A stretch of DNA of 64,000 bases from an uncultured Verrucomicrobiae bacterium (GTDB lineage Bacteria; Verrucomicrobiota; Verrucomicrobiia; Chthoniobacterales; JAFAMB01): contig CAVXLD010000009.1 of NCBI GenBank assembly GCA_963762565.1, positions 32,001 to 96,000 of the forward strand. The letters run 5' to 3'. A model generated the notes under the pieces. It made no database searches. It was not told where the DNA came from and saw only the letters and a list, made by a program, of their open reading frames with translations. A program made the translations under genes and the position numbers. Positions 11,292-44,388 of this stretch are shown piece after piece; position 1 is the stretch's first letter, and every line of letters begins with the position of its first letter.

Positions 11292-11474
11292 GGGAGGGAT
11301 CGCAGCCTGTCCGACATAGCCTTCCATCGTGGGGTCTTTTCTTCTCAGCTCTGGCGACGTCGGATCCCCGCGATCCGTTTGTTTGCGGAGCCGAGGACGT
11401 TCTATAATGGTGGGCGAAAATACACCCTTTGGTTGAAACACGTCCTCGCGGCGCGCTGGGGACGCGCGCCCTCC
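11292..11474. repeat. REP doublet (REPIN-like), GGAG type, with nested insert
   Basis: GGGAGGGATCGC... at left and ...GCGCGCCCTCCC at right, between convergent genes. Confidence 0.85.
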
Positions 11475-11482
11475 CCAATTGC

Positions 11483-12844
11483 CTACCCCTCCAACGCCTC
11501 TATCTTCGCCGCTGGAATTGACGGCTCTAGCGTCTGCAAAAGCTTCAGCGCCCCTGATCGGTCCTTAATCTCGCCATCCAATTGTGCGGTCTGGACCGCT
11601 TCTAAGATTTCGCCGAACCGGGGGCTTGGTTTGAGTCCAAGCGCGATCAAGTCACGTCCGGTCAGCAACGGCGGCGGAATGATCGGTTCGTTCTCAAACT
11701 CTTTCTGTTTGTTCACCAGCAGATCGTATGTCTGCAAATCTCCGTGGCTCCCAAGGCAGTCGACCCGGTGTAATTCCAACTCTAAAGGAAAATTCTGGCG
11801 TCCCATGAAGCGGCGCAGCTTCGCCGGCCGCATATTCGGCGTGTCCTTGAATACCATGTGATGGCGGATCGCCTCGACCACCGTTTCGATCTCCTCATTC
11901 GAAAAACGAAGCCGGGTCATGATTTCCACGGCCATATCTGCTCCGACCTGGTCATGACCGTTGAATCGAATCCGCTGGTCGACCTCATCAAAACTGTAGG
12001 TAACAGGTTTTCCAATGTCATGCAGAAGGACTGACAGGGCTAGCAACGGGGAAGCATCGGCCGGCAAAAGACTCAGCATCAACCGGGTATGGACATAGAC
12101 ATCTCCTTCCGGATGAAATTGTGGTGGTTGCTCACAACCATGCGTCCGGTTCACCTCCGGTAGGATGTTTTGCAAGAGCCCGCTTTGATCAAGCAGATCG
12201 AGTCCGCGAACCCGATGGGAATCGGCCATGATCTTCACCAACTCATCCCGGATCCGTTCCTGGCTTACGGTTTTAATCTGGTGCGCGTTTTCTGTGACCG
12301 CTTTCCAAGTAGCTGGTTCGATTTCGAAGTCGAGCGCAGCAGCAAAACGGACCGCGCGCAAAAGGCGAAGATGATCCTCAGAAAACCGTTCCTTGGGTTC
12401 TCCGATCGCCCGTATCAGCCGGCGCTCCAGATCCGATCTGCCGCCCACAAAATCAACGACTTGATCTTCGACCGGATCATAGAACATGCCGTTAATCGTA
12501 AAATCACGGCGTCTAGCATCTTCTCCCGGAGAAGAAAAAGTGACTGAGACTGGGCGTCGTCCATCGAGATAGACGCCATCGGAGCGAAAGGTTGCGACTT
12601 CAAACTCGAATCCTTCGTCCAACACCCGAACCACCCCGAATTTGGCTCCGACTGCCACTGTCCGAGCAAACAGCTTTTGTACCTCATCGGGCTTCGCGTC
12701 GGTGGCGATATCGATATCTTTCGGCTGTTTCCGCAGGAGCGCGTCCCGGACACTGCCGCCCGCGAAGTAAGCCAGAAAGCCGCTCTCCCGAAGGCGACGT
12801 ACCAGTTTCGTCGCCGCCCGCGAAAGCGAATCAGACAAAAGCAT
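11483..12844 (-). CDS. cca: CCA tRNA nucleotidyltransferase (class II) with HD domain
   Basis: GGSVRD...DIDIAT, RRDFTIN, EDHLRLLRAVRF, ERIRDE and LLHDIGKP motifs. ATG at 12844. Confidence 0.9.
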   Translation of the reverse strand: MLLSDSLSRAATKLVRRLRESGFLAYFAGGSVRDALLRKQPKDIDIATDAKPDEVQKLFARTVAVGAKFGVVRVLDEGFEFEVATFRSDGVYLDGRRPVSVTFSSPGEDARRRDFTINGMFYDPVEDQVVDFVGGRSDLERRLIRAIGEPKERFSEDHLRLLRAVRFAAALDFEIEPATWKAVTENAHQIKTVSQERIRDELVKIMADSHRVRGLDLLDQSGLLQNILPEVNRTHGCEQPPQFHPEGDVYVHTRLMLSLLPADASPLLALSVLLHDIGKPVTYSFDEVDQRIRFNGHDQVGADMAVEIMTRLRFSNEEIETVVEAIRHHMVFKDTPNMRPAKLRRFMGRQNFPLELELHRVDCLGSHGDLQTYDLLVNKQKEFENEPIIPPPLLTGRDLIALGLKPSPRFGEILEAVQTAQLDGEIKDRSGALKLLQTLEPSIPAAKIEALEG

Positions 12845-13002
12845 CAATCAGGGTCGACAAGTGAGGAACTCTCGTCAAGCACGACCATGTCCGCCTGGGC
12901 TGCTTCTTTGGCCGACGCGGCCGGCAGTTGCAACTCCATATAGGCGTGCAACAAAGCGGTTTCCCGCTGTTCTTCGTTCAAATGAAACGTTTGGCTCTCC
13001 AA
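12844..13002 (-). CDS. Small acidic hypothetical protein (52 aa), translationally coupled to cca
   Basis: TTG start after GGAGG: MESQTFHLNEEQRETALLHAYMELQLPAASAKEAAQADMVVLDESSSLVDPD*. Its TGA overlaps the cca ATG (TGATG). Confidence 0.65.
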   Translation of the reverse strand: MESQTFHLNEEQRETALLHAYMELQLPAASAKEAAQADMVVLDESSSLVDPD

Positions 13003-13050
13003 CTCCTTATCCTCCGTTCTAATTACTCCGCCAGAGCCCTACGGTTTCAG

Positions 13051-13080
13051 AAAAACCCACCGCGAACTCGGCGGTGGGTT
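13051..13080 (-). terminator. Intrinsic terminator (attenuator) in the cca operon leader
   Basis: Minus strand AACCCACCGC-CGAGTTC-GCGGTGGGTT followed by TTT: a 10-bp stem running into a U tract. Confidence 0.8.
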
Positions 13081-13108
13081 AAAAATCTAACGTTCGATTT
13101 TCGTCTCC

Positions 13109-13186
13109 CTACCGCCTGGCCAAGGCAAGCCAGCCAGCACGCATCTTGACGCAAATTTTGGCACGATCGCACCACTGATTAGCCAT
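13109..13186 (-). CDS. Putative attenuator leader peptide (25 aa; or 11 aa from the internal ATG)
   Basis: MANQWCDRAKICVKMRAGWLALARR*. The stop region GGCGGTAGGG is complementary to the terminator 5' arm CCCACCGCC (one bulge). Confidence 0.55.
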   Translation of the reverse strand: MANQWCDRAKICVKMRAGWLALARR

Positions 13187-13304
13187 ATATTTTGTCGGGG
13201 GTGTGGTGAGGTACACGAACATCTCCCGACTAATACGATCCGAAGGCCTTACTCGCAAACAGAAATTCAGGTTACAAAATTGTTACGATTGTGGCGAAGG
13301 CGCA

Positions 13305-13532
13305 CTACTCCAGCACTCCAATACTCCAGTACTCCATCACTCCGCGCGACCGGATTCGAGGACGAGGACGAGAACAAGAACGAAGCGTTCAGCACGCGTT
13401 GTAATCGGGGACAAAAATACGCCCTTCGGATGTGGCACGTCCTCGCGGCGCGCGGGGATCCGACGTCGCCCCGCTCGAAGAAAAAACCGATCGGATGCAT
13501 AAGGCTATGTCGGACAGGCAGCACGCCCTCCC
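13305..13532. repeat. Composite repeat: (ACTCCAnn)n octamers, GAGGAC tract and GGAG-type REP with nested insert
   Basis: Direct inspection; the right part is a reverse-complement copy of 1262-1400. Confidence 0.8.
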
Positions 13533-13696
13533 CGATTTGGACCCTGTGACCCCGCGGGGTTGGAACTGCGTTCAGCCGATGTAATATCAAATATTCGGAT
13601 TGCCCTTCGCAGTAGTACGACGTAGCATCGCGAGGTTGTTCGAACGGCGGCGCAATATTCTCACTGCGAAGTGCAGCGTGGGAACACTTTCTAGCC

Positions 13697-13975
13697 ATGG
13701 AAAACTCTTCAACAGCGAGGTTACAGCAGATGCCAAAACGGACCACCAGTGTCCGTCTTGAGAACCTAGAACGGCTCGAACGAGTGGTTCGAGAATTTGG
13801 ATTTAAGGATCGCAGCCACTTTTTCCAATTGTGTACCGATGCCTTGATACGAGCCCATTCCGAAAGCCAACAACTCGATTGGCCTCCACGTTTCGCGACG
13901 CGTAAAGAGCTGGAGCTGCGAGAAAGAGAGCTACCGCGAATGGATCATCCTGAGCCGGCGCAGCTTCCGCATTGA
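13697..13975 (+). CDS. Small ribbon-helix-helix (CopG-like) DNA-binding protein
   Basis: KRTTSVRL beta-strand followed by LERLERVVREFG and DRSHFFQLCTDALI helices. The start may be ATG 13730. Confidence 0.55.
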   Translation: MENSSTARLQQMPKRTTSVRLENLERLERVVREFGFKDRSHFFQLCTDALIRAHSESQQLDWPPRFATRKELELRERELPRMDHPEPAQLPH

Positions 13976-33877: not shown

Positions 33878-34232
33878 AGGAGCTAGGAGCTAGAATCTAG
33901 GAGCTAGGAGCTAGGAGAAGCGTGTCGGCGTGTCGGCGTGTCGGCGTGGTTGCCACGAAGTGGCGAAACAGAATAGCCCAGGGCTTCGCCCTGGGTTGGG
34001 TTCCAAAAAGAGGATCGCCCTGAAGGGGTGACCGACATTGGACGCTGCGTTGGCCACATCGTCGCACAGGCTTGAACAAGAAACTTGGCGAGCACGGATT
34101 CTCCTCTCCCGCCCTTTCAGGGCGGATCCATGAGGGCCGTCATACCCAGGGCTAAAGCCCTGGGCTGTTCTGTTTAGCCACTTCGTGGCATTCGCCGCAT
34201 CGCCGACACGCTTCTCCTAGCTCCTAGCTCCT
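33878..34232. repeat. Nested repeat: (AGGAGCT)n / (GGCGTGTC)n brackets around an inverted-repeat element at 33951-34190
   Basis: TGCCACGAAGTGGCGAAACAGAATAGCCCAGGGC... pairs with ...GCCCTGGGCTGTTCTGTTTAGCCACTTCGTGGCA; the flanking tracts are reverse complements. Confidence 0.88.
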
Positions 34233-44010: not shown

Positions 44011-44209
44011 CGTTCCGTAGGAACGGACTGACCTTAGCCAGGCAATTTATTGCCCAGGAGTCGCACAAACGGACCTCGTCCCGAAGGGTACGGTGTGATC
44101 CGCACGCCGTGCTCTGCCACCGGACACGCATTTGCACCTGCTTTTTAATCGTTTGAGTCGCATCCCAAGCAATAAATTGCCTGGCTACGATCGGTCGTCC
44201 CTCCGGGAC
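44011..44209. repeat. REP-like inverted-repeat element
   Basis: TAGCCAGGCAATTTATTGC pairs with GCAATAAATTGCCTGGCTA, with GTCCC..GGGAC-type mini hairpins. Confidence 0.8.
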
Positions 44210-44388
44210 ACAGGCCACTGTCGCCAACACGCAGCACCGTCCCATTTTCGGTAAACATTCATCCCACTTGCGGGATGAAAATCAGGGATAGAGAGCCGTC
44301 ATTTTAACTGCCCAAAAAAATCTTTATTAAAAATTTCTTCTCGAGAAAGGGCCAAAAATTGGGGTTGGCACGCACTAAAAAAATCGCG

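Follow-up and report, generated by a model that had tools for sequence, protein, structure and literature searches.

Sequence evidence for a conserved transcription attenuator upstream of a small-protein gene and, in one family of Chthoniobacterales, of cca

Judged by sequence comparison, the region upstream of the cca gene in an uncultured Verrucomicrobiae genome holds a real, conserved transcription attenuator, which is new in having a leader of mixed codons, a small-protein family as target, and interchangeable passenger genes behind it, cca being the passenger in one family. In the window, by which we mean the whole 64,000-nucleotide (nt) stretch of DNA analyzed, the module runs in the order promoter, nearly leaderless upstream ORF (uORF) of 37 codons, antiterminator, U-tailed terminator, gene for a 52-amino-acid (aa) protein (here called the small gene), and cca (Table 1). 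We favor, with somewhat better than even confidence, a ribosome-coupled attenuator that would report broad translation trouble, with the small gene as its target and cca topped up. A first-pass annotation of the same DNA had been right about the class of mechanism and partly wrong about the target, which it took to be cca, and the trigger, which it sought in the last codons of the leader. The mechanism itself is textbook; the module has no description in the literature searched, which covered few subscription journals.

According to the favored reading, transcription from the promoter P1 would start almost at the uORF start. A ribosome keeping pace over the last 8 to 10 codons would mask the antiterminator, and the terminator would form. 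An earlier stall, caused by an uncharged or CCA-damaged tRNA, starvation, or antibiotics, would leave the antiterminator to capture the 5' arm of the terminator, and transcription would then continue into the small gene. The small gene, conserved as the target throughout Chthoniobacterales and in some further Verrucomicrobiae, would encode a short-lived helical-hairpin protein, and the genes downstream would be carried along: exporters in some families and cca in the window's family, where cca would also be transcribed constitutively from a second promoter, P2, inside the small gene and topped up by read-through. The unannotated small-protein family would then probably serve as a translation-stress effector; the soil lineage that carries it is abundant and for the most part uncultured, and the related 'Ca. 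Udaeobacter' is reported to be multidrug resistant (PMC7343977).

Anatomy of the module and folding of its RNA

Table 1. Features of the locus, in window positions, with their sequence elements or the basis of the call
Feature	Position	Strand	Elements or basis
P1, predicted sigma70-like promoter	13230..13258	-	-35 TTGCGA 13258-13253, 17 nt, -10 TATTAG 13235-13230
uORF (leader peptide), 37 codons, nearly leaderless, mixed codons	13109..13222	-	stop 13111-13109
Antiterminator segment, complementary to terminator 5' arm	13107..13116	-	duplex -17.9 kcal/mol
Intrinsic terminator: stem, loop, five U	13051..13080	-	folding, covariation
Post-terminator segment, complementary to terminator core	13028..13045	-	duplex -24.8 kcal/mol
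Small gene, 52 aa, acidic, TTG start, helical hairpin, uncharacterized family	12844..13002	-	codon-position signal, AlphaFold
P2, candidate internal promoter, leaderless cca, within small gene	12850..12878	-	silent-site bias; predicted
P2 boxes		-	-35 TTGACG 12878-12873, 17 nt, -10 GACCCT 12855-12850, 5 nt, ATG
cca, CCA-adding tRNA nucleotidyltransferase with HD domain, 453 aa	11483..12844	-	Pfam
Divergent conserved small gene, ribbon-helix-helix-like	13697..13975	+	Atlas match

The elements named in the first-pass annotation were all found on the minus strand where it had placed them, namely, the uORF end (...MRAGWLALARR and the stop codon), a terminator beginning 28 nt past that stop, a segment spanning the stop that can pair with the terminator 5' arm, and an acidic 52-aa ORF overlapping the cca ATG at 12844; both tRNA genes of the window indeed lack an encoded CCA. 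The leader start, which it had put at 13186, most likely lies at the ATG at 13222, 7 nt behind the -10 box; in the relatives the leader begins at the corresponding distance from the promoter. A P1-like TTG...TA pattern was seen at the equivalent position, 6 to 12 nt 5' of the uORF start, in the family loci; P1 itself was absent from the output of a consensus promoter scan of the window.

For the comparisons we curated 45 loci, 29 from the window's family and 16 from other families, leaving out L017 for its frameshifts, the truncated loci L053 and L003, and L102, which has no U tail; the genomes are related and not independent, and the significance of all p-values given here is therefore overstated. 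The terminator stem of the window has an energy of -17.7 kcal/mol, and the 111-nt region around it gave a z score of -3.2, none of 200 shuffles being equally stable. Across the curated loci the terminator energies ranged between -11 and -26.5 kcal/mol, and in all 45 the uORF stop lies 20 to 47 nt 5' of the terminator. Among the 41 aligned loci, 93.6% of the terminator cells are paired, and changes on both sides were found at 6 of the 11 pairs, a covariation above that of 500 of 500 shuffles and of all slid registers.

In the window, a single one of 100 dinucleotide-shuffled leaders equaled the antiterminator duplex. In 42 of the 45 loci the leader segment that pairs best with the 5' arm ends 28 to 49 nt before the terminator; the duplex was better than shuffles (p ≤ 0.05) in just 29 and spans the uORF stop in 10. 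The leader was fitted better by its own terminator arm than by swapped arms in 40 of 45 loci, with 0 of 5,000 permutations as low, a result inflated by kinship. The leader ORF, the antiterminator, and the terminator are conserved and co-vary, which supports the earlier proposal of a translation-coupled transcription attenuator.

Folding of the two conformations agreed with that proposal. When a ribosome footprint at the stop was masked, the antiterminator was lost in 44 of 45 loci, and with the ribosome at least 12 codons before the stop it formed (mean, 0.85 to 0.9), so that the models predict read-through dependent on ribosome position. At equilibrium the terminator was favored in 42 of 45 loci, and the switch must therefore be kinetic and co-transcriptional. 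Folding without a ribosome gave the antiterminator in 32 of 45 loci; it was rejected as a test for a general sensor because 9 of 10 ilvB-type control leaders behave alike.

After the U tract the window carries a second inverted copy of the terminator core (the post-terminator segment of Table 1), which tracks the loop changes in many relatives. Its duplex was equaled by 1 of 100 shuffles in the window and reached p ≤ 0.05 in 24 of 45 loci; it may serve the refolding of read-through RNA. Rfam gave no match at the gathering score at the window site or, tRNAs excepted, in 20 related loci, the best sub-threshold match at the window site being anti-hemB (E = 1.7). Elsewhere in the window, two Acido-Lenti-1 RNA matches exceed the gathering score (44165-44210, plus strand, and 33951-33995, minus strand).

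The uORF and what it may sense

With starts picked by eye in the curated loci, the uORF measures 33 to 41 codons in the 29 family loci and 35 to 55 in the 16 others. Its frame has zero in-frame stops versus 49 and 55 in the other two frames, with about 26% of shuffled leaders being stop-free by chance. The differences are spread evenly over the codon positions (75/77/69), and 35 synonymous codon changes stand against 137 non-synonymous ones; such an even spread in an open frame is expected if translation matters and the peptide product does not. The missing purifying selection on the peptide would also suit a terminator controlled by a small RNA, a protein, or a ligand, with the ORF incidental, as would the extensive hairpins that folding predicts in the leader, the unexplained post-terminator duplex, and the share of stop-free shuffles. 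We consider such control very improbable, since the frame, length, and start position of the uORF are kept across genera and families, the same RNA scaffold bears Val-rich or Leu-rich leader peptides before ilvB or leuA in other Verrucomicrobiae, and no Rfam family matches.

The uORFs are rich in residue types, with a mean of 17.1 distinct residues. Of the 45 uORFs, 44 lie above proteome windows (mean, 15.0) and 42 above stop-free dinucleotide shuffles (mean, 15.5), and the other two frames have 14.1 and 15.0; 18 of 20 hand-picked divergent representatives exceeded their own shuffles. The commonest residue makes up 14% on average and never more than 21%, the longest run is 3, and Ala stands at 1.2 times the background. 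Classical attenuators are marked by a single control codon that is repeated in a run or strongly enriched, and the uORFs show neither. Cys, enriched 4.5-fold over the proteome, was rejected as a control codon because TGY is enriched in all frames, which points to nucleotide content. Of the conservation that the first-pass annotation had expected in related genomes, that of the leader ORF and of the paired terminator and antiterminator was found, whereas the Trp and Arg codons of the tail, its proposed sensor, were not conserved: of the 29 family leaders, 11 have Arg among the final two codons and 4 have Trp among the final eight.

In composition, a mixed, run-free, and residue-rich uORF suits a sensor of stalling in general, of the kind known from whiB7. 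We rate as unlikely a Trp-specific or arrest-motif attenuator, in which one positioned Trp codon or an M-x4-W-type motif would be the stall site. In its favor, 43 of 45 uORFs contain a Trp codon, as against 21 and 34 for the other two frames (the uORF frame is enriched in Met and Lys too). Within groups the Trp codon keeps a fixed distance, and it lies 10 to 21 nt before the antiterminator in 14 of the 16 other-family loci and 16 nt before it in the window, a spacing close to trp-leader geometry. Against this, Trp falls in that range in 5 of the 29 family loci, where it mostly lies 36 to 42 nt upstream of the antiterminator; 2 of the 45 loci have no Trp, tandem Trp codons are absent, no Trp-pathway gene was found among the downstream ORFs scanned, and in the folding models a stall at any codon at least 12 before the stop frees the antiterminator.

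The broad-sensor reading draws on the likeness to whiB7/wblC of Actinobacteria, with which the module shares a variable uORF, a terminator/antiterminator switch, and a small protein as first target (PMC10274678). The whiB7 uORF is reported to be variable in both length and sequence and to sense whichever amino acids its codons specify; that of Mycobacterium smegmatis, which has codons for all amino acids except Cys, responds to many kinds of starvation (PMC10274678). The module differs in its target, which has no WhiB match, in a uORF that is not Ala-dominated, and in belonging to another phylum, where it is known from sequence. The trpL, ilvB, and leuA leaders likewise have a leader ORF, a competing antiterminator and terminator, and a stop 20 to 47 nt before the terminator; unlike them, the module has no control-codon run, a longer leader, and no matching biosynthetic gene among the downstream ORFs scanned. 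On the shared RNA scaffold, the 10 leaders of ilvB type contain 9 to 13 residue types (12 to 13 expected for their length) and mostly 5 to 10 Val.

Gating of a translation-stress gene by uORF translation, as proposed here, is also described for three antibiotic-responsive attenuators. The uORF of rli80-hflXr (PMC6310831) differs in having 14 aa and an RLR motif; toiL of toiL-topAI (PMC12121999) differs in acting via translation repression and Rho; and the Sinorhizobium meliloti uORF-DUF1127 case (PMC12218461), which shares a small target gene of unknown function, differs in resting on C-rich codons at the uORF start.

The small gene and its shifting neighbors

The differences among the small genes by codon position (53/24/111), with 89 synonymous and 61 non-synonymous changes, mark the ORF as a real gene under purifying selection. 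AlphaFold predicts helices at residues 10 to 23 and 28 to 46 (pLDDT, 78), i.e., a helical hairpin. Pfam, NCBIfam, a PDB sequence search, and the Atlas gave no family match, Pfam and NCBIfam none to WhiB or DUF1127 in particular, and three alignments contained no conserved cysteines. Foldseek returned nothing at E ≤ 0.001; its top match, EF-Ts, was dismissed as not significant (E = 2.4). The best VIA match (Z, 6.3; rmsd, 4.6; 49 residues aligned) is at the background level for short helical models. We found 244 representatives at E ≤ 0.001, and those with a source name are labeled "hypothetical protein." The protein ends in -AA in 33 of 45 loci, the window's genus having lost this end, and the genome's tmRNA tag ends in LAA; the -AA end suggests a ClpXP-type degron, and the protein is probably short-lived. 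That it is a transient stress regulator or adaptor is a guess, to which we give slightly less than even weight.

Distribution separates the module from cca. The first set of 30 cca loci comprised 20 from the window's family and 10 from others: the terminator and layout were present in all 19 family loci with upstream sequence, including L017 with frameshifts in the uORF and the small gene, and in none of the 10. Of 12 further family loci, 11 were complete and the 12th, with 58 nt upstream, shows the U tract only. In an independent set of 80 cca loci at the level of Chthoniobacterales, the module was present in 5 and absent in 72 of the 77 having at least 500 nt upstream; in each of the 5 the cca product is closely related to that of the window, and the loci correspond to ones already found. 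Since the module stands beside cca in the window's family only, the link to cca is a one-family trait. There the small gene adjoins cca, mostly by a stop-start overlap, in all loci checked except L020, which has a second small ORF between the two.

Run against 250 genomes of the order, a broad profile of the small protein matched 47 (E ≤ 0.01), and 22 of these lie outside the family. Sixteen of these 22 matches carry the promoter, uORF, antiterminator, terminator, and small gene, and none has cca; the remaining six are L102, whose Val/Ile-rich leader lacks a U tail, L084, which has no terminator, and L087, L096, L101, and L103, which were judged spurious. Behind the module in the other families we found EamA (5 loci), LexA-like (2), ABC transporter, GNAT, 3-hydroxy-3-methylglutaryl coenzyme A (HMG-CoA) reductase, cytidylyltransferase-like, transposase, and TPR genes (1 each), an ORF of no family (2), or no same-strand gene (1), and among the 16 downstream ORFs scanned there was no Trp-pathway or matching amino acid biosynthetic gene. 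The EamA and ABC genes overlap the small-gene stop, as cca does. With the same attenuator and small gene preceding other genes outside the window's family, cca is not supported as the main target; the conserved target appears to be mainly the small gene, and the gene context argues against the small protein as a dedicated partner of the CCA enzyme.

When 141 genomes of the class were scanned with an RNA model of the switch, 52 gave a match; in the window's genome the model matched one place only. Among the 29 model loci read, 10 have Val-rich leaders before acetolactate-synthase-like (ilvB) genes (L215-L217, L220, L223-L225, L227, L228, and L233) and 4 have Leu-rich leaders before leuA-like genes (L214, L219, L231, and L240); an Rfam scan of L215 and L240 and a literature search returned no described family for these Verrucomicrobiae leaders. 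Three of the 29 have a small-protein homolog downstream, two of them directly behind the terminator. Phylum-wide protein searches gave G038 and otherwise weak matches inside long ORFs (2 of 301 and 7 of 401); they missed true homologs shown by the RNA model, and the range is thus under-sampled.

Small-protein homologs in L102 and L236 lie behind Val/Ile-rich leaders, which suggests that the trigger differs by lineage. A second unannotated family, of 112 to 124 aa and with no Pfam match, lies behind a similar mixed-codon attenuator in other Verrucomicrobiae (L218:1116-1451, L230:1608-1979, and L235:1080-1436), and attenuators also precede a MATE exporter (L222), a methyltransferase with a Val-rich leader (L232), and a small gene with an SMR/EamA-like transporter (L239). 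Longer fused forms of the small protein amounted to 17 scattered matches among 8,000 candidates scored, with no recurring domain. Short homologs, mostly family paralogs, lacked the attenuator terminator in 26 of 26 cases checked; such paralogs (L104-L123), of which a genome may hold as many as 8 matches, are scattered, differ in their ends, and lack the attenuator, and one in the window's genome (G000:C8:61757-62074, minus strand) has a basic N-terminal extension.

The CCA-adding enzyme and a candidate promoter inside the small gene

The cca product has the Pfam domains PolyA_pol, RNA-binding, HD, and tRNA_NucTran2_2, and its best NCBIfam matches are CCA enzymes, all below the cut-off. Invariant in the enzyme are D43/D45, R112-R113-D114, and E156-D157-x-L159-R160, which we take to be the class II motifs DxD, RRD, and EDxxR, as well as Y92...G95-R96-x-P98. 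With the head motifs, the flexible loop, and its place as the sole such enzyme beside CCA-less tRNAs, the protein is by prediction a CCA-adding enzyme of class II; it has the domain set and the invariant catalytic and template motifs of other such enzymes with HD, and its position behind the module alone is unusual. The genome (93.7% complete) has no other match, and of its 40 placed tRNA genes 9 encode CCA and 31 do not, with 3 more not placed. As a single gene among mostly CCA-less tRNAs, cca is very probably essential.

A candidate promoter below the terminator would explain how such a gene can sit behind it. At the 3' end of the small gene, silent sites are biased across the family: CTT is used in 20 of 29 cases versus 11 of 221 elsewhere in the gene, and the P2 region differs from the rest of the gene in the use of GAC (20/22 versus 22/48), GAA (23/24 versus 54/114), and GCT (22/25 versus 51/214). 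In 18 of 30 family loci the biased codons yield TTGAC and GAnnnT at a spacing of 17 nt, the cca start following 5 nt on, and GAnnnT is kept in 27 of 30, even where, as in the window, the residues change. Outside the family, TAnnnT occurs 4 to 9 nt before the start in 13 of 73 cca genes versus 1.6% per random position, and the consensus promoters of the window's genome show a modest cluster of starts 5 to 12 nt downstream. On the other side, of 11 genera 7 have the -35 box and 4 lack it, position -12 is a G, and GAAG could instead be a ribosome-binding site. On balance we think it rather more probable than not that P2 is real. Transcription of cca from a promoter downstream of the terminator would, by the first-pass annotation's own account, refute its proposal, and the conserved promoter-like element found there, the predicted P2, counts in part against it.

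That proposal, which has the attenuator serving to control cca, routes the whole of cca expression through it as a feedback loop of tRNA repair, and makes the small protein a partner of the enzyme, appears quite improbable to us. It has on its side the adjacency of the small gene and cca in the family loci and the HD domain of the enzyme, which is the repair domain of the Escherichia coli CCA enzyme. The sensing arm is plausible too, as in Pseudomonas aeruginosa the loss of cca is reported to raise stalling on a leader peptide and through it to induce armZ, a reverse link and the nearest case in the literature searched (PMC13041342). It is weakened by the module without cca in other families, by the cca loci without a module, by the candidate P2, and by the extra ORF in L020. 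Under the broad-sensor reading, cca is probably constitutive from P2 and boosted by read-through, a stress boost made plausible by the lack of a terminator between the small gene and cca. Attenuator control of cca has no description in the literature searched, with few subscription journals covered; if the boost occurs, tRNA 3'-end repair would here be induced by stalling, a case not found in that literature either.

A doubtful further step, which we take only tentatively, would be to see in the module a Verrucomicrobia counterpart of whiB7, with an all-codon leader that would read overall tRNA charging and ribosome speed, a short-lived regulator of a new family, and, through cca, a tRNA-end repair loop above the constitutive baseline. 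If so, damaged tRNA ends would raise their own repair above that baseline.

Interspersed genome repeats (482 local matches in the genome) flank the module and cca at window positions 13291-13540 and 11381-11480, the upstream insertion being missing from close relatives. Beyond it lies the divergent ribbon-helix-helix-like gene, a single copy in the genome, whose third Atlas match is named "putative ribbon-helix-helix" (score, 0.92), with PF01402 on 13% of its members. The gene was not found in other-family loci (1 to 4.5 kb examined); it is present in 27 of 30 family loci with a core 65 to 95% identical, and it could regulate P1 or itself.
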